Source of the DNA: an uncultured Candidatus Saccharibacteria bacterium
GTDB taxonomy: Bacteria > Patescibacteriota > Minisyncoccia > Phycocordibacterales > UBA918
Direction: 5' to 3'
DNA length: 64,000 nucleotides
Assembly: GCA_964601615.1 (NCBI GenBank)
Contig: CAZRNZ010000002.1
Span: 73,339 to 137,338, forward strand
Part shown: positions 7,872-58,178 of the stretch, piece after piece
How the letters are laid out: every line of letters begins with the position of its first letter
Numbering within the stretch: the stretch's first letter is position 1
Notes under the pieces: model-generated
What the model was told of the DNA's origin: nothing
The model's input: the letters and a program-made list of their open reading frames with translations, nothing else
The model's database searches: none
Program-made: the position numbers and the translations under genes

Positions 7872-8183
7872 AGTATCCACATTATATCGCGATTGTTGTG
7901 GATTGTCGTATATTATTTTTTTCTTTCTTCTTTTCTCTTTATTATTAGGGGTGTTGATTGCTGGATAAGTCAAAAATACTTTTGTAAATAAGGATATTTT
8001 TCATGTTTAATATCCACAGGTGTAACTTAGTAATGTTGGATATAACTGTTGGTAACTGTCTTTTCTGGATAAGGTGGAATATATACACCTTTTTACCCAC
8101 AATTAATATGAGTCATAAACAGCAAAAAATCACTATTTATTCACATGTTATTCACAAGGATTGCACAGATTATTTATTAATTA
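7872..8183. other. Candidate oriC between dnaA and dnaN, with DnaA-box-like 9-mers and an AT-rich unwinding region
   Basis: TTATNCACA-like boxes at about 8009 (atatccaca), 8094 (ttacccaca), 8146 and 8158 (ttattcaca). AT-rich run at 7890-7960. Confidence 0.55.
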
Positions 8184-8212
8184 AAGAGTCGCACCGAAGG
8201 TGCGACTCTTTA
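8184..8212 (-). terminator. dnaA terminator
   Basis: aaagagtcgcaccgaaggtgcgactcttt hairpin directly after the dnaA stop at 8216. Confidence 0.7.
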
Positions 8213-8215
8213 ATT

Positions 8216-9595
8216 TTATTTTAATAACATTCTAATCTGAGCTATCTCCTCTTCTAGATTCGAATCACTCTTCAGTTCGTTTTTTATCTTCTCGCAAGAA
8301 TGAATTACTGTTGTATGGTCTCTCCCTCCCAACTTTTGTCCGATAGTTGGATAAGAAACTGAAAAGTCTTCTCGTAGAATATACATTATCAGCTGACGAG
8401 GTTTAACTACTTCCTTCCGTCTGGTTTTTTCGTAGATACTTTTTGGATCAATATTAAAGTACTGCGCAACCTTTTCTACTACGTCATCAATCGCCATGCT
8501 ACGCCTAGGGCGGGTACTGTTTTTGATAATAGTTCTAACTTCCTCAAGGTTCAAAACCCTGCCCAAAAGTTGTGATTGACACATTATTGAGTTAAGTGCC
8601 CCTTCTAATTCGCGAATATTACCACTGACAGATTCAGCTAGGTGGTCGATAACTTCAGGATCTAGCGTGATACTGTTTTGAGCCGCTTTAGCTTTTAGGA
8701 TTGCTGCTCTAGATTCTAAATCTGGTGCAGGTATATCAACAATCATTCCGGCAGCAAATCGTGATTGTAAGCGTTCTTCCATGCCAGAAAGTAGGGCTGG
8801 ATGAATATCACTAGAAAAAACAATCTGCTTGTTGTTGTCGTGAAGAGTGTTAAACAAATGGAATAGTTCTTCTTGAGTTTTTTCCTTACTGTTTAAAAAC
8901 TGGACATCGTCCATTACCAGAACATCGTACTGACGGTACTTGTCCTTGAAGCTGTTAGCAGTTCCGCTTTGAAGTGAGTTGAAATAATCTACAGTAAAAC
9001 GTTCGGCTGTAACATAAAAAACTTTTTTTCCGCTTTGTTTTATCTTGTTCCCTACTGCTTGAATAAGGTGGGTTTTTCCGTGACCAGTTTTTCCATAAAT
9101 AAATAATGGATTATATGCAATTCCAGGTCGTTCGCTAACTGTTTTTGCAGCAGCATGAGCAAGGGCGTTGAATGGCCCAATAACAAAAGTATCAAAAGAA
9201 TACTTAGGATTTAGGTTATCGCTTTTGTTTATATAGTACTCTTCTAATGGTAAAGCAGAATTTACGTTTGAAGTACGGCTTTCTTGTCTTTTTTCACTTC
9301 TCTGTACAACTGTGTATTCAATATTTCGTACAAACGGTGCGTTTTCACGCAGTACGCGCAGAATCATCGATTGAAACTTGTCTTGCAACCAATCTCTTAC
9401 AAAAACACTTGGAACGCCAAGAGTTATAGTGCCGTCCTCAAGAGAGACTATACGAGTGTCGCGAAACCAAGTCTTAAAGTTAGCTGGAGTAATTGCTAAC
9501 TCGATACTAACTAAAACGTCATCCCATAACTTTTTAATATCAACCTGTTCTGATGTAATAAGACTGTTCACGATCGATGGTGATATTTGATTCAT
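8216..9595 (-). CDS. dnaA: Chromosomal replication initiator DnaA
   Basis: AAA+ Walker A GKTGHGKTHLIQAVGN, Walker B VLVMDDVQFL, and C-terminal DNA-binding domain with the HTTV motif. Confidence 0.95.
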   Translation of the reverse strand: MNQISPSIVNSLITSEQVDIKKLWDDVLVSIELAITPANFKTWFRDTRIVSLEDGTITLGVPSVFVRDWLQDKFQSMILRVLRENAPFVRNIEYTVVQRSEKRQESRTSNVNSALPLEEYYINKSDNLNPKYSFDTFVIGPFNALAHAAAKTVSERPGIAYNPLFIYGKTGHGKTHLIQAVGNKIKQSGKKVFYVTAERFTVDYFNSLQSGTANSFKDKYRQYDVLVMDDVQFLNSKEKTQEELFHLFNTLHDNNKQIVFSSDIHPALLSGMEERLQSRFAAGMIVDIPAPDLESRAAILKAKAAQNSITLDPEVIDHLAESVSGNIRELEGALNSIMCQSQLLGRVLNLEEVRTIIKNSTRPRRSMAIDDVVEKVAQYFNIDPKSIYEKTRRKEVVKPRQLIMYILREDFSVSYPTIGQKLGGRDHTTVIHSCEKIKNELKSDSNLEEEIAQIRMLLK

Positions 9596-9726
9596 AACCG
9601 TTTAAGTGAAGATGGCGAGTAACAACTGGTGATTAGTGCTTTGAATTATACCCTCCCAAAAATACCTGTAAACTTTTTTGATAAAAACCAATAAAACTAA
9701 CCGCTTTCGCTCCGGAAAATGTCTAG

Positions 9727-9746
9727 TGTGGATAAGTTGGGGATAA
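9727..9746. promoter_or_regulatory. Tandem DnaA boxes in the dnaA/rpmH divergent intergenic region
   Basis: tgtggataa (perfect TTATCCACA on the minus strand) followed by tggggataa (one mismatch). Confidence 0.55.
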
Positions 9747-9822
9747 TAATTTTTGCGATAGATAAAGTACTTGAAATAACCGAAAAACAGTGTATATTGG
9801 GGCAACTTGTAAAAATCAATGT

Positions 9823-10021: not shown

Positions 10022-10345
10022 ATGTTGAAGAAAAAAGAGCGATTAACAAAAAAAGAGTTTGATCGCTTTTTTTCTTTGGGAAAAAGGTTGCACTCCCCTT
10101 TCTTTACTATTGTTTATACAAAGAGTGATAATTTTCACGGGGCAGTAGTGGTGGGAAAAAAGGTTTTTAAAAACGCTGTTGATAGAAATCTTTTGCGTCG
10201 GCGGTTGTACAATTCGCTTTATAAGTTGTCTCGTGCGGATAATCTAAAAGGAGTGTATATAATACTATCTAAGCCACAAGCGGCTAAAATGTCTTTTTTT
10301 GATTTATACCAAGAGATGAAGACTATTACTGATTCTATAAAATAA
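10022..10345 (+). CDS. rnpA: Ribonuclease P protein component
   Basis: Basic 107-aa protein with the RnpA pattern (FTIVY...VVGKKVFKNAVDRNLLRRRL) in the conserved rpmH-rnpA-yidC order. Confidence 0.85.
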   Translation: MLKKKERLTKKEFDRFFSLGKRLHSPFFTIVYTKSDNFHGAVVVGKKVFKNAVDRNLLRRRLYNSLYKLSRADNLKGVYIILSKPQAAKMSFFDLYQEMKTITDSIK

Positions 10346-34320: not shown

Positions 34321-34322
34321 TT

Positions 34323-34351
34323 TGACTTTATTTCTGAAAGGTCTAGAATAC
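34323..34351 (+). promoter_or_regulatory. Sigma-70-like promoter for the downstream ORF-free transcript
   Basis: TTGACT, 16-nt spacer, TAGAAT. Confidence 0.5.
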
Positions 34352-34357
34352 GAATTG

Positions 34358-34685
34358 CCAAAAAGGTGGGAGGTTGCAAAACTGTGAAGATCAACCGTTT
34401 CCCGAAATAGCGTCACCATCTACAATAGATGAGGACAACCTCAAGGCAAAGGGAAAATCGGAGGGAGGAATGCTCCATATTCGTGAAGGTCCCGAAGTTC
34501 TTTAGTTCAGAAAGGTTTATATAACCCACATCGCTCACAGCAACGAAGTGGCAATAGGTCTGAATATTATTTCGGACACGGTTGAAACCGAGACGCCCAA
34601 AGTGCTGCCCAGGGTTTTGTGCACCTGAGTGCAAAATACATGCACCGACCCCGACGATTTTATATTCGTCGGGGTCTTTTTTATT
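34358..34685 (+). ncRNA. Candidate structured ncRNA, family unassigned, about 320 nt between promoter and terminator
   Basis: No plus-strand ORF of 60 aa or more. Consensus promoter upstream and a strong terminator (gaccccgacgattttatattcgtcggggtc plus a T-run) at 34640-34685. The minus-strand 73-aa ORF looks non-genic. Confidence 0.45.
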
Positions 34686-34738
34686 TTATATTGACTAGTT
34701 TTGTATTTATTCTAGGATGATATCCAGATTAGTGATTA

Positions 34739-35323: not shown

Positions 35324-36115
35324 ATGAAAATATACTCGTGGAACGTTAACGGAATTAGGGCGGTAGATAAAAAAGGATTATTTACCCCTTTTATTATGAA
35401 ACATCAGCCTGATGTGTTGTGTTTGCAAGAAACCAAGGCTTCAAAGGAACAAAGTACGGTAGATTTACCGGAATATGATGAATACTGGAGTTCCGCAGAA
35501 AAGAAAGGTTATTCAGGGACTGCTATTTTTACCAAAATTGCACCCAAAAGTGTCATATATGGTCTTCCGGAAGATGTGAAACAAGAATTTTCCTTATCAG
35601 ATGAATATGGAGATAGTTCTACAGAAGGTCGTGTAACCACAATTGAGCTAGAAAATATCTATGTAGTTTCAGTTTATACACCAAATGCTAAAGACGATTT
35701 GAGTAGATTACCTGTTAGACAAGAGTGGGATAAAGCATTTCTTGCCTATATGAAACAACTTCAGTCTGAGAAACCGGTAGTTTTTTGCGGTGATTTGAAC
35801 GTGGCACATACCGAACTCGATTTAGCTAGACCAAAAGAGAACAAAGGAAAGAAGGGTTTTACGATAGAAGAACGTGAAGGAATCGAGGAAATTATAGAAG
35901 CTGGTTTCACAGATTCATTCAGATTATTTAATAAAGAAAACGGTAACTACACTTGGTGGTCACACTTTGCCAAAGCTAGAGAAAGAAATGTTGGTTGGAG
36001 GATAGATTATGCAATGGTTTCGAAAGATTTGATTCCTTTAGTTAAAAAATCATCCATACATGATGATGTATTTGGTAGTGACCACTGCCCTGTTTCTGTA
36101 GAAATATCTATATAG
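35324..36115 (+). CDS. xth: Exodeoxyribonuclease III (AP endonuclease)
   Basis: MKIYSWNVNGIRA N-terminus, catalytic LCLQETK and DHCPV motifs of the EEP family. Confidence 0.92.
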   Translation: MKIYSWNVNGIRAVDKKGLFTPFIMKHQPDVLCLQETKASKEQSTVDLPEYDEYWSSAEKKGYSGTAIFTKIAPKSVIYGLPEDVKQEFSLSDEYGDSSTEGRVTTIELENIYVVSVYTPNAKDDLSRLPVRQEWDKAFLAYMKQLQSEKPVVFCGDLNVAHTELDLARPKENKGKKGFTIEEREGIEEIIEAGFTDSFRLFNKENGNYTWWSHFAKARERNVGWRIDYAMVSKDLIPLVKKSSIHDDVFGSDHCPVSVEISI

Positions 36116-36119
36116 GACA

Positions 36120-36695
36120 ATAATGTCTTATATAAAAGACAGCTTATCCACAGTTATTCACATTGATGTCCTTTACATAATTTGTAAAGGACATAGAATA
36201 TATTCAGGCCCAGAGAGGGCAGGCATCGCAAGATCCTAAAGAGTTCATTCCACAAGGTTAGAAACCTCCAAAATTCTAACAACGTTCATAACACATTCCC
36301 ACCTAAAGAGTATGTAAAAAATAAAACATTTAAGTACTCAAGTTAAAGAATTCATGATCGAGCTTGTGAGCCGCAAAGAGGGCCTAAGACATTGGTCCCT
36401 CCTTCCGGCTCGCTTGCTTGAAAAAAGTAAAAGTGAATTCTTAGGAATCTACTAAAGATTCCACGCACAGGAGAGAAGTTTATTAGGTACAAAAGTAAGA
36501 GTCGTTAGGTAAATTAGGATCACTCAGTCTTTAGACATAGAGTTCCATCTGAGGCATTTACACCTCGTATAAAAATCCTAAAGGGACTCGAAATAAGTAC
36601 ATTCTGTATGTCGTGAGACATATATCAAGGCCTGGAGAGGTTGGTAGACAAGTTTATTGTCTTCCTACCCCTCCAGGCCTTTTTTATTTATAAAC
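36120..36695 (+). ncRNA. ORF-free, structure-rich region ending in a plus-strand terminator; candidate long ncRNA, family unassigned
   Basis: No ORF of 60 aa or more in any frame over 36116-37015. Perfect hairpin at 36157-36185, a long nested helix at 36366-36424, and a terminator ggcctggagagg...cctctccaggcc plus TTTTTTATTT at 36634-36695. Confidence 0.35.
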
Positions 36696-36962
36696 TTCCA
36701 AAATTAGCGAAATGCTTGGTTTTCAGGATTTTGTATCCCGCGTCGTATGTATGTATACGCCTTGGTTAACAAAATCCCTTAATCCGTCGCCTTTCATCTA
36801 ATTTATGAAAGTTTGTCTTGTAAGAAGAATCTTAAGTTAAAAAATACCTATAAACTATTGCGTTTTATCCAATTTATCAAAGATATATAGGTATTTAATA
36901 TTAGTTCCATGCCTTACTTTCCTTTGCTACGTATCCAGAAAGAAGTCCTGTATAAAATATTT

Positions 36963-36990
36963 AAAAGCAGTACTAATTAGTACTGCTTTT
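36963..36990. terminator. Terminator of the NUDIX gene
   Basis: aaaagcagtactaattagtactgctttt. Confidence 0.65.
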
Positions 36991-37015
36991 ATTTGTTCTA
37001 GCCTTATTACTTGGT

Positions 37016-37480
37016 CTACCGCTTTATTTCTATTAACTTATGTTCCAAGACGGTATCGTTTTCCCCAAATAAAAAATATCCTTTAAATTCAACGCCTTTT
37101 AGTAAAAGAGGTAACCAATAAGTATCATCTGCCCACATATCTTTGTAAGGAATCTCCTCTGTTTTAAACCATTTTGGTAGCATTTCCTCAGTCTCTTCCG
37201 GCTTACCTTCATATTCATCCGTTTTGTAAATATGAACCTCTAATATTTCTGGATTACCAGCAAATTCAAAGTCTAAAACACCAATTTCTTGCAAATTTAT
37301 TGGAGTAACACCACACTCTTCTTGCGTTTCACGAATAGCTGCTTCCTCTAAGGTTTCTCCCTGTTCTAGTTTTCCACCAAAGCCGTTCCATCTCCCTGCA
37401 CCAAAGCCACGCTTCTTCATTCCCAGCAAAATCTGGTCATCTTTCGTAATCATTACCAGAGTAAGAAGCTTTTTGTTCAT
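37016..37480 (-). CDS. NUDIX hydrolase
   Basis: Nudix box GGKLEQGETLEEAAIRETQEECGV. Confidence 0.85.
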   Translation of the reverse strand: MNKKLLTLVMITKDDQILLGMKKRGFGAGRWNGFGGKLEQGETLEEAAIRETQEECGVTPINLQEIGVLDFEFAGNPEILEVHIYKTDEYEGKPEETEEMLPKWFKTEEIPYKDMWADDTYWLPLLLKGVEFKGYFLFGENDTVLEHKLIEIKR

Positions 37481-41823: not shown

Positions 41824-41860
41824 TAAGTGGCTAATAATATGGATATTATAGGTATGTCCT

Positions 41861-41906
41861 TTATAGAAGACGTTTATGTCTTTTATAAAGGACATACATT
41901 TTGATT
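41861..41906. repeat. Hairpin repeat ATGTCCTTTAYA...TRTAAAGGACAT, copy 2 (copy 1 at 36157-36185)
   Basis: gtatgtcctttata gaagacgtttatgtcttt tataaaggacatac. Copy 1 is atgtcctttaca taattt gtaaaggacat. Confidence 0.7.
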
Positions 41907-41947
41907 AATACGACCTTCAGTTTGAATTAATTTTGTCCACATAAATA

Positions 41948-41981
41948 AAGCGCTTTTAAACTTTAGTTTAAAAGCGCTTTA
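41948..41981 (-). terminator. Terminator downstream of tRNA-Pro
   Basis: aaagcgcttttaaactttagtttaaaagcgcttt. Confidence 0.65.
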
Positions 41982-45501: not shown

Positions 45502-45510
45502 CTAGTAAAC

Positions 45511-45540
45511 AAAAAGAACACACTTTTGTGTGTTCTTTTT
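45511..45540 (+). terminator. Terminator after tRNA-Gly(UCC)
   Basis: aaaaagaacacacttttgtgtgttcttttt. Confidence 0.65.
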
Positions 45541-45593
45541 GTACGTGTGTGGGCAACAGTAAGCGCCACTTCGGCGCTTACGTGGGGAATCGA

Positions 45594-45704
45594 AAGGCGG
45601 AGCGTTGTATTTTTCTCTTTTCCTAGAGAAAAATACCGCGAGCCGGGGCAGCAAGTCCTTGTGAACAAAGTGAATTAGGAACTTGCGCGGTTTTCCCGTG
45701 CTCG
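45594..45704 (+). repeat. tRNA-linked repeat, copy C (longest)
   Basis: Matches copy A over the 55-nt core and copy B over the flanking modules. Has an internal 9-bp hairpin tttttctct...agagaaaaa. Confidence 0.7.
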
Positions 45705-45710
45705 CACAAT

Positions 45711-45788
45711 AAAAAACCGACAACTCTTTGAGTTGTCGGTTTTTCTGTATTTATTACTCAAAACAAAAGACCTCTTTTGAGGTCTTTT
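45711..45788. terminator. Two tandem hairpin terminators downstream of hup
   Basis: aaaaaccgacaactctttgagttgtcggttttt and aaaagacctcttttgaggtctttt. Confidence 0.65.
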
Positions 45789-45803
45789 GTTGCATCGCTG
45801 TCA

Positions 45804-46076
45804 TTATTTCACAGCATCCTTAAGTGCTTTGGCGGCACGGAACTTAGGTACGCGCATTGCTGGAACTTCAATTGATTCTCCAGTGCGAGGATTGCGAGCT
45901 GTACGAGCGTCGCGTGACTTGGTAGAGAAAATACCTAGACCAGCGATAGATACTTCCTGACCACTCTTAAGTGTATCAACAACACTGTTGATTACTGTTT
46001 CAACAGCTCTTTCTGCATCAGCTTTTGTTATGTCTAATGATTCGTGTACTTTGTTGATTATGTCTGCCTTATTCAT
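45804..46076 (-). CDS. hup: DNA-binding protein HU
   Basis: 90 aa; MNKADII...[28 protein letters not shown] is the HU arm signature. Confidence 0.93.
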   Translation of the reverse strand: [90 protein letters not shown]

Positions 46077-46254
46077 ACTTAATTAGTGTGTGAGTTTTTA
46101 TAATGGTTACGTCGAGATTTTAATCCCACCTCGCCACAATTGGCTTACAAAACATTATATAGCACTGTTTATTGACTGCAATGACTTGGCAAAAAGAAAT
46201 ATTGTGTTCTTATTTTTGTTAAAAATAAATAACCTATGATAATCTTTTTTAGTT

Positions 46255-54236: not shown

Positions 54237-54388
54237 TTTGTTACCTATATCCTAAAGCCAGTCTTATTTAGACTGGCTTTTCTTTTTTATAGATAAGGGC
54301 GCGGCAAAGCCGCGCCCTTTCTGTTGGCAATTCACTCATATTCCAACAAGATGGTGATACAATTTATATATAAATATTTTGGAGGGAA

Positions 54389-57365: not shown

Positions 57366-57512
57366 AGTTATTTATTGATTTTCTCTGGTTTTAAAAGGAG
57401 TGATATTTTTCTCAATTTTGCCTAGCTATTGAATTAGATTTTATTTTGCTGTTTAATACTCGATAGGTAGATTTCTATTCTAGAAATCTTTGCTTCAAAG
57501 GGAGGTTTCCTA

Positions 57513-58178
57513 ATGTTGGTAAAGTTCTCTAACAATAACAGCGCTAGTCGTGGGTGGAGCATTTATTTTCTATTCTTAATTTCTTTGCTCATTTGTAGCT
57601 TTTCCTCGCTTACAATTAACACTTCCGCTTCTGAAAGTGTTCGCCTTGAGGGCGATGTCCTCGTCTTGGAAGAGGTGATAGAAAAAGCTCGGATTGAGAA
57701 TGTTCCTTTTGGTCTTAGTGCTGAACAGGCACGAGACTTGATATCTGGAAAAGTTTCAGAAATACAACTTAATGATGATAATGATGTTCGTATCGGTTGG
57801 TTTGTCCCAATCGTTACTGAAGAGTATGCGGCTATTCGCAAGGTTGCCTATCAAGGTGATTGGCAAATAAATTCATATTTTGAGAAATTGGATCTCAATT
57901 GGAAGAATATATTAACGTTGAATTTATTTTTTTATGGACCAATTCTGCTATGGGTTTGTATTATCTTGATGTATCGTCGTATAACTCACTTGGTTGAGTT
58001 GGACGATCTCGGTTTGGGGTTTGCTGCCTTTGCTGTCGTGCCCTTTACGGCAGTGCACTTTTTCGTTTATTATTATTGTGGCGTTAAAGAATTTCTGACT
58101 TTGCTTATTATGGCTGCTTCAATTGTGATAGTAGCTTTTATTGTAAGGAAACAAAAAATAAGTGTTGTACATTCTTGA
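57513..58178 (+). CDS. Polytopic membrane protein in the pilus locus, function unknown
   Basis: N-terminal TM plus 3 C-terminal TM helices. Strong SD aagggaggTTTCCTAATG. No peptidase A24 motifs seen. Confidence 0.45.
   Translation: MLVKFSNNNSASRGWSIYFLFLISLLICSFSSLTINTSASESVRLEGDVLVLEEVIEKARIENVPFGLSAEQARDLISGKVSEIQLNDDNDVRIGWFVPIVTEEYAAIRKVAYQGDWQINSYFEKLDLNWKNILTLNLFFYGPILLWVCIILMYRRITHLVELDDLGLGFAAFAVVPFTAVHFFVYYYCGVKEFLTLLIMAASIVIVAFIVRKQKISVVHS

Follow-up and report, generated by a model that had tools for sequence, protein, structure and literature searches.

What can occupy 900 bp of intergenic DNA in a compact genome where the median gap between genes is 48 bp? The question is raised by positions 36116-37015 of the window, by which is meant the whole 64,000-nucleotide stretch of contig CAZRNZ010000002.1 (assembly GCA_964601615.1) that was analysed. 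This longest intergenic gap of the window starts after the stop codon of xth (exodeoxyribonuclease III; 35324-36115, + strand) and is bounded on its other side by the stop codon of a NUDIX hydrolase gene in convergent orientation (37016-37480, - strand). Taken as a whole, the locus is best explained by a stand-alone gene for a large, structured non-coding RNA (ncRNA) that is conserved in Paceibacteria, within the Patescibacteria or Candidate Phyla Radiation (CPR), immediately downstream of xth; we give this reading a probability of roughly 0.8. The predicted RNA gene lies on the + strand at 36206-36687 (~480 nt), with its 5' end at AGGCCCAGAGAGGGC and its 3' end in a U-tract.

An original prediction, made from the letters of this DNA, had singled out the gap on two counts, the lack of any open reading frame (ORF) of 60 amino acids or more and the unusual length of the spacer, and both observations hold. 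The longest ORF in any frame is 46 amino acids. Because 595 of 1000 composition-matched shuffles of 36116-37015 likewise lack an ORF of 60 amino acids, its absence is weak evidence when taken alone; the length of the gap, not the missing ORF, is the remarkable feature. One or more structured RNAs had been proposed to fill it, and the proposal stands in the singular, as one conserved structured RNA gene with strong covariation support. Of the means suggested for checking it, Rfam and ARAGORN return no signal, while the comparative alignment reveals very strong conservation and compensatory changes in relatives. The segment 36200-36695 folds at -155.8 kcal/mol, with z = -7.7 against dinucleotide shuffles, none of 100 of which equalled it.

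The evidence that carries the reading is comparative. Relatives were collected in two samples, one of 80 loci found through Xth, and one from metagenome contigs scanned for the 5'-terminal 19 nt of the RNA alone, which yielded 122 pattern matches (at least 120 metagenome loci, plus 2 loci on viral contigs) that were then submitted to nhmmer for confirmation. A full-length homologue follows xth directly, on the same strand, in 42 of the 80 Xth-derived loci, and nhmmer recognised at least 79 further true homologues among the 122 pattern matches listed. In 73 of the 79 metagenome homologues listed, xth is again directly upstream on the same strand; the remaining six are on truncated contigs. The linkage to xth is thus real and not a sampling artefact, since these 73 were found by the 5' motif alone and also follow xth. 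The family counts below are based on a set of 115 sequences. The family total is at least 115 homologues, in Paceibacteria metagenome-assembled genomes (MAGs) and metagenomes; 111 of the 115 are distinct sequences, and their length ranges from 287 to 544 nt (median 385 nt). The closest Xth relatives (62-76% identity) all come from MAGs labelled Paceibacterota, Parcubacteria, Kaiserbacteria, Nomurabacteria or Patescibacteria, which assigns the window to a Paceibacteria-type CPR bacterium. An nhmmer profile built from 36 homologues matches 36206-36685 with E = 2e-36, and this is the sole copy in the window. A phage origin was considered and rejected, both viral-contig pattern matches being non-homologous by nhmmer.

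The 5' domain of the RNA begins with H1 (36208-36220), a nearly invariant hairpin with the sequence GCCC-AGAGA-GGGC in the window and GCCC-AGARA-GGGC in the family. It is followed by H2 (36222-36236), which has a GNRA loop and takes the short form GG(C)AUC-GCAA-GAUCC in the window, compared with about 60 nt in most relatives, and by the conserved single-stranded block CCUAAAGAG (36235-36243; family consensus CCUUAAAGAG). H4 (36257-36280; fold z = -3.1) is formed by GUUAGAA/UUCUAAC and shows ACCUCC (36264-36269) in its loop. A conserved unpaired stretch, AACGUUCAUAACA...CCCACC, occupies 36281-36303, with CCCACC at 36298-36303; across the family the unpaired ACGUUCAUAACA...CCCACC stretch closes the 5' domain. 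The central region (36304-36498) is lineage-variable, and comprises hairpins at 36308-36339 and 36444-36462 and a long helix at 36346-36443 that folds at -45.4 kcal/mol (z = -6.9). It measures ~195 nt in the window and in the closest relatives, loci L002-L004, among which compensatory changes such as GAGCUUGUGAGCCG to AGGAGCGUGGGCCG are found, and most relatives have one shorter hairpin in its place. The 3' junction domain (36499-36589) is closed by GAGUC/GACUC (36499-36503 / 36585-36589), within which lie the inner helix UUAGG/CCUAA (36505-36509 / 36577-36581) and hairpins at 36517-36546 and 36550-36554 / 36563-36567. A small hairpin, UAUGUC-GUGA-GACAUA (36607-36622), is present only in the subgroup made up of the window and L002-L004. 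The RNA ends in a long terminal hairpin with 25-nt arms, a 5-nt loop and a U6 tract (36627-36687), which would serve as intrinsic terminator and is also a conserved element, AAAGGCCUG...CAGGCCUUUU; it folds at -36.4 kcal/mol (z = -7.5). A simple terminator scan did not flag this hairpin, probably because its stem is long and interrupted. The orientation of the promoter, the U-tract and the G-U pairs of the conserved helices fit the + strand only.

All three hairpin features named in the original prediction exist, at coordinates that were off by 5-10 nt. The nested helix, placed at 36366-36424, spans 36346-36443 with its inner part at 36360-36420, and the plus-strand terminator, placed at 36634-36695, has its arms at 36627-36651 and 36657-36681, followed by TTTTTT at 36682-36687. 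The perfect 12-bp hairpin had been put at 36157-36185 and lies at 36166-36177 / 36183-36194; it does not survive as a feature of the RNA, for it appears to be promoter and operator DNA upstream of the predicted transcript start. An antiterminator pairing of the 5' AGGCCC with the 3' strand of the terminal hairpin was also entertained and rejected, as the hairpin covaries alone and the 5' end is fixed.

Covariation was tested on MAFFT subgroup alignments of 17 related sequences, with the structure projected from one member. For H1 and H2 together, 93% of cells are paired versus 35-53% in controls with slid partners, and none of 500 shuffles reaches the covariation score; in the long form of H2, 17 of 21 pairs have changed on both sides. 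The 3' half, consisting of the junction and the terminal hairpin, behaves similarly (88% paired versus 35-49% in slid controls; 18 pairs changed on both sides; score reached by 0 of 500 shuffles), with the terminal hairpin itself contributing 10 of 16 pairs changed on both sides and 91% of cells paired. Individual substitutions can be followed from locus to locus. H1 variants keep their pairing as GUCC/GGGC in L002 and L003, as GUCC/GGAC in L004 and, by a matched 1-bp shortening, as GCC/GGC in L001, and the path from C-G through U-G to U-A is seen across L002-L004. In L003 and L004 the AUC/GAU of H2 has become ACC/GGU and GUC/GAC, and the closing helix of the junction is GAGCUU/AAGCUC in other subgroups and GAGUC/GACUC in that of the window. 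The stem enclosing the H4 loop was found in 43 of 43 genome-derived members as 29 distinct stems, chosen by an automatic picker and including a few long-range alternatives. The same 3' architecture was obtained in 17 homologues, each folded independently. RNAalifold, applied to a plain MAFFT alignment of 41 5' halves, recovered H1 alone, because variable hairpin lengths spoil the alignment, and was followed by the subgroup alignments with projected structure and by anchor-based extraction of stems. At least seven helices are supported by compensatory changes. Length variation among members takes the form of whole hairpin-sized insertions.

The RNA gene appears to have its own promoter of fixed geometry, ending 6 nt upstream of the point at which conservation starts. 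This promoter, of sigma-70 type (36172-36199, + strand), pairs a -35 TTTACA (36172-36177) with a -10 TAGAAT (36194-36199) across a 16-nt spacer and matches the consensus at 10 of 12 positions. Promoter statistics were gathered from 113 distinct upstream regions (112 for DnaA boxes). In 109 of the 113, the distance from the beginning of TGTCCTTTAC, with its -35 hexamer TTTACA, to the conserved RNA start is 40 nt (39 nt in the window), and in 100 the end of a -10-like TAnnWT is 6 nt from the first conserved base of the RNA. Conservation of the RNA begins abruptly at AGGCCCAGARAGGGC, which is position 36206 in the window.

These lines of evidence make it very probable that the locus does encode a structured ncRNA, transcribed independently and belonging to a family not yet catalogued. 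The family is absent from Rfam 15, and no Parcubacteria or Patescibacteria ncRNA of this kind was found described in the searchable literature. The genomes of CPR/Patescibacteria are tiny and encode very few recognisable regulators, and to our knowledge hardly any ncRNAs beyond the universal ones have been described in them. Given its size and structure, its occurrence in more than 100 species-level sequences, its fixed locus and a promoter conserved to the nucleotide, the RNA is likely a central player rather than an accessory. The family could enter Rfam and annotate a long "empty" gap in many Paceibacteria MAGs.

How such an RNA might work is suggested by its C-rich motifs. ACCUCC is invariant (115 of 115 listed members), the longer UACCUCCAA occurs in ~95%, and the motif lies in the H4 loop of all members; the second C-rich motif, CCCACC, is unpaired. 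A CCCAC or CCACC motif is present in 103 of the 115, and in one subgroup the C-rich motif is found just 5' of the terminal hairpin instead. GGAGG, the complement of ACCUCC, occurs within the RNA in 32 of 115 members, mostly inside the long H2 that the window lacks, and GGUGG, the complement of CCCACC, in one of 115. Because internal complements are rare, both motifs would be free for intermolecular contacts. An internal pseudoknot between ACCUCC and the 3' strand of H2, CUGGAGGUAC, was examined and rejected: the strand is complementary in many members and absent from those with short H2, including the window. The RNA may then act in trans through these two elements without internal partners, pairing with the G-rich, Shine-Dalgarno (SD)-like sequences of a few mRNAs, or binding a protein. 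Our best guess is a trans-acting RNA under the control of DnaA and a repressor, whose C-rich loops would bind G-rich RNA or protein; that it works specifically by base pairing of the C-rich loops is a tentative idea, more doubtful than not.

ACCUCC is the core of the anti-SD sequence of 16S rRNA. In the window, an SD-like motif stands upstream of 4 of 56 ORFs of at least 100 amino acids, and start regions are A/T-rich instead. Outside the RNA gene the window contains four complements of at least 9 nt to the H4 loop region that include GGAGG, and the type IV pilus cluster (54.3-60.8 kb) has all four, on its sense strand. Two of them fall at ribosome-binding sites (9-10 nt), namely ATTTTGGAGG at 54376 for pilB and GGAGGTTTC at 57501 for the gene starting at 57513. 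As evidence for targets this complementarity is suggestive but weak, because any SD complements ACCUCC by definition and the pilus cluster is G-rich on its sense strand. This same cluster also supplies the clearest SD-led genes of the window, which are pilB (54389) and a neighbouring gene, of unknown family, whose start is at 57513.

A close mechanistic likeness is to the RNAs typified by RNAIII of S. aureus and RsaE/RoxS, in which C-rich loops pair with SD sequences. Shared with these are a C-rich motif in a loop, a second unpaired C-rich motif, an own promoter and terminator and, for RNAIII (514 nt), a similar length; the differences are the lack of homology, a host that rarely uses SD (4 of 56 ORFs), and the absence of any known Hfq-type context.

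Among rival explanations the one that fares best accepts the ncRNA and disputes its mode of action. It is quite possible, though not our preference, that the RNA is a protein-binding scaffold or sponge, in the manner of 6S, CsrB, Y RNA, OLE or raiA, and that it does not act by base pairing; ACCUCC and CCCACC would then be protein-recognition or tertiary-contact elements. In its size, strong multi-domain structure, conserved junction and conserved terminal hairpin of unusual length, the RNA looks more like a ribonucleoprotein RNA than a small RNA that pairs through a seed, a hexamer invariant in 115 sequences suits a fixed contact with a protein or the ribosome, and the SD-like targets among the 56 genes counted above are very few. 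Against the scaffold stands the lack of any co-localised candidate partner protein, the conserved neighbours being xth and cca (CCA-adding enzyme).

A more specific version of the pairing idea, which must be considered improbable, is that the RNA is a free-standing mimic of the anti-SD sequence in a lineage where SD-led initiation is rare. The UACCUCCAA of the H4 loop would capture the few mRNAs with a strong GGAGG, which in the window are those of type IV pilus genes including pilB, or alternatively the loop would serve as a decoy, attracting whatever binds to the anti-SD of the ribosome; through DnaA and a repressor binding TGTCCTTTA, its control would be tied to replication or to the state of the cell cycle. 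Among Parcubacteria 16S genes, Tsurumaki et al. (2022, PMC9297842) could detect an anti-SD motif in no more than 48%. The rarity of SD in the window fits this reported loss of anti-SD in many Parcubacteria (PMC9297842). The fetched loci were searched for 16S 3' ends, with which anti-SD loss could be examined, and none was found in them. An anti-SD-like loop would touch on the question of how translation is initiated in Parcubacteria that have largely dropped the SD/anti-SD interaction.

A second ORF-poor stretch, at 34321-34738 after mltG/YceG, may be a second ncRNA. It folds with z = -3.9 and has a strong terminator at 34650-34685 followed by a T-run, Rfam gives terminator-type noise alone, and in relatives the stretch is not next to xth. 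Two G-rich sequences in it, GGUGGGAGGU (34365-34374) and GGAGGGAGGA, complement the ACCUCC and CCCACC motifs of the main RNA.

Control by DnaA and a repressor is suggested by the DNA around and upstream of the -35 element. Tandem DnaA boxes on the + strand, a perfect TTATCCACA at 36144-36152 and TTATTCACA with one mismatch at 36154-36162, are spaced by 10 nt at about -62 and -52; across the family, where the positions are -63 and -53 and one mismatch was allowed, 104 of 112 promoters have one box or more and 41 have two. The split palindrome TGTCCTTTACA-N5-TGTAAAGGACA (36167-36177 / 36183-36193) is operator-like, with one arm over the -35 hexamer and the other filling the spacer. The second copy of TGTCCTTTA, in the spacer, is inverted in 72 of the 113 promoters and direct in 33. 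Further upstream (36111-36141) are other operator-like sites, namely a TAGGACA half-site that overlaps the stop codon of xth and, at 36124-36141, an 18-bp near-palindrome, TGTCTTATATAAAAGACA. The family consensus of this palindrome is TGTCCTTTATAAAGGACA; 64 of 113 promoters have it upstream when up to 3 mismatches are allowed, and in 50 of these it starts 52-53 nt upstream of the TGTCC site proximal to the -35 element (near -92).

On this layout it is somewhat probable that DnaA, a repressor or both regulate the RNA gene. DnaA would control transcription through its two phased boxes at -63 and -53, and a DNA-binding protein that recognises TGTCCTTTA would do so as well, its sites over the -35 element and in the spacer having a repressor-like arrangement in which the auxiliary palindrome near -92 would be a cooperative distal site. 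DnaA-regulated promoters are known from dnaA autoregulation, nrdAB and sda of B. subtilis. The RNA gene promoter is like them in having TTATNCACA boxes in fixed phase just upstream of its -35 element; it differs in that the product is an ncRNA and that a second operator motif, TGTCCTTTA, accompanies the boxes in 3-5 copies. The boxes suggest a link between the replication status of the chromosome and whatever the RNA does, and the TGTCCTTTA operator would define a binding motif for a CPR transcription factor.

The only other perfect occurrence of TGTCCTTTA in the window is in adjacent 18-bp palindromes at 41855-41872 and 41877-41894. These are followed by a -10-like TACATT and ~75 nt leading into a bidirectional terminator (41949-41975) beside tRNA-Pro, so that 41855-41975 could include a small transcript under the same regulator as the RNA gene.

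DnaA boxes also occur elsewhere in the window. The classical origin neighbourhood rnpA-rpmH-dnaA-dnaN is at 6.8-10.3 kb, and its dnaA-dnaN region carries clusters of DnaA boxes, including a similar tandem pair upstream of dnaA. This pair, TTATCCACA / TTATCCCCA on the - strand at 9727-9746, lies beside rpmH-rnpA and, together with five DnaA-box-like sites between dnaN and dnaA, belongs to the likely oriC region (7973-8216 and 9596-9760). A secondary replication origin at the RNA locus was rejected: it has 1-2 DnaA boxes, its flanking genes converge, and the rnpA-rpmH-dnaA-dnaN origin region is at 7-10 kb.

Several points weigh against the reading of the locus as a conserved ncRNA gene. The RNA itself, its start site and its terminator are all deduced from sequence, and its mechanism is conjecture. 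The use of 17 fairly close relatives with a structure taken from one member somewhat favours that structure, and the measure of further pair types is not above shuffles for the 3' half (428 of 500). Close relatives can beat column shuffles without any structure, although here the slid-partner control argues otherwise. Among the 122 pattern matches listed, 43 are chance. Finally, 38 xth loci lack a recognisable homologue, and in 13 of them xth is followed by the same promoter cassette, which there precedes terminator-ended sequence of ~280 nt that nhmmer does not link to the family and that has no Rfam or ARAGORN match. The promoter, rather than the RNA, may therefore be the more constrained element; the 13 loci reflect either very fast RNA evolution behind a frozen promoter or re-use of the promoter.

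Some of the RNAs behind a promoter with DnaA box and TGTCCTTTAC in more distant Paceibacteria were grouped as two types. A "type 2" is seen at L038:3640-3925 and in loci L040, L052, L056, L063 and L064, and a "type 3" at L047:4860-5100 and in L057. The L047 type has an H1-like start, AGGCC-GUUC-GGC, together with CCCCUAAAACAAAAGAGG, which hints at distant homology.

The next rival is that the DNA is itself the functional element, either as a control locus binding DnaA or another protein (datA- or DARS-like, or a transcription-activated site) or as a 3' regulatory region of xth, with the transcript secondary. The cassette is more conserved than the RNA, at ~80% nucleotide identity where Xth protein identity is 62-71%, and it is this cassette that stands before non-homologous-looking sequences in the 13 loci; the linkage to xth is nearly absolute, and the locus is 26-28 kb from the dnaA-dnaN / oriC region. 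The constraints seen downstream are nonetheless specific to RNA (compensatory changes, G-U pairs on one strand, an invariant loop hexamer), a titration locus would be expected to have more than one or two DnaA boxes, and a discrete product is set off by a canonical -35/-10 pair at one end and a terminator at the other, so that this explanation is unlikely by a wide measure.

That the RNA is a known housekeeping species (RNase P, tmRNA, SRP or 6S) so diverged as to have been missed by Rfam and ARAGORN is more improbable still. The suggestion, which for tmRNA, RNase P and SRP had been part of the original prediction, gained no support. Against Rfam 15 at gathering thresholds the whole window yields four tRNAs alone, with no family in the gap, and 28 related loci likewise yield only tRNAs. 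A permissive search (E up to 10), covering first 1401 nt and later 506 nt, gave no RNase P, tmRNA, SRP, 6S, OLE, ROOL, GOLLD, HEARO or raiA. Its matches (miRNA precursors, SNORA36, OxyS, tsr26, RAGATH-6 and RAGATH-19) were rejected as chance, being far below gathering and mostly on the terminal hairpin. ARAGORN finds four tRNAs in the window and no tmRNA either there or in 8 related loci, and neither a tRNA-like CCA end nor a tag reading frame is present. No Rfam SRP model matches at E up to 10.

For RNase P the case deserves fuller statement, since RnpA is encoded in the window (10022-10345) and an RNase P RNA must therefore exist, none being seen in the 64 kb. A size of 287-544 nt, wide conservation and a strong promoter would suit a housekeeping RNA, and it is known that default Rfam thresholds can miss the RNase P RNAs of CPR bacteria: for 10 of 35 complete CPR genomes, Lui et al. 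(2021, PMC8172020) needed to lower the RF00010 threshold and refold manually. The RNAs of that study were still found by RF00010, however, and kept "many conserved features" (PMC8172020), whereas here neither RF00010 nor RF00011 matches at gathering score or at E up to 10, and the conserved blocks (CR-I of GGAAAGUCC type, CR-V of ACAGAA...GGCUUA type) are absent on reading the window and homologue sequences. The failure to see rnpB carries little weight with 64 kb of genome visible. The RNA does resemble type A RNase P RNA in its size range, wide conservation and structured core with lineage-specific insertions and deletions of helices; it differs in having no P4-forming blocks and no P1 pairing of its ends, which instead form local hairpins that covary. 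The pair counts support these local hairpins at both 5' and 3' ends and leave no P1-type or 6S-type closing stem. Like 6S RNA and Ms1 it would be a stand-alone, probably abundant ncRNA with a long imperfect helix; unlike them it does not form one rod, closed by its two ends, around a central bubble. It has no Rfam match to 6S, and its minimum free energy and comparative structures are multi-domain, not rod-like.

A close parallel as a class is with the orphan large ncRNAs OLE, ROOL, GOLLD, HEARO and the raiA motif. These too are several hundred nt long, multi-domain and supported by covariation, restricted to lineages yet widespread within them, and found by comparative genomics of long intergenic regions. 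The present RNA is set apart by its lack of an Rfam 15 match, its occurrence in CPR, its fixed neighbourhood next to xth and a DnaA-box promoter conserved to the nucleotide. We know of no fixed gene neighbourhood or DnaA-box promoter for any of these five.

The weakest rival, the degraded gene that had been offered as an alternative to structured RNA, would account for a long non-coding stretch in a compact genome and for stop-free stretches of up to 139 codons in some homologues, but it can be dismissed, because the same element is non-coding in at least 115 sequences from different species, the longest open stretches are consistent in neither strand, frame nor position across members and encode unrelated peptides, length differences are hairpin-sized with compensatory substitutions in helices, and conservation begins exactly at the promoter-defined start.

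Of the remainder of the gap, downstream of the RNA gene, comparison with relatives found nothing conserved at 36696-36961. The second-longest intergenic gap of the window, 752 bp at 45503-46254 downstream of tRNA-Gly(UCC), contains no Rfam family at gathering score. The NUDIX gene adjoins xth in one of the 80 related loci, and in 60 of the 80 a convergent cca is found downstream; the NUDIX gene thus seems to have been inserted between cca and the RNA gene in this lineage only. That the NUDIX gene is peculiar to the lineage of the window explains why the final ~320 bp of the gap (36696-37015) are unconserved, and their sole feature, outside the RNA gene, is the bidirectional terminator hairpin of the convergent NUDIX gene at 36962-36991 (- strand).

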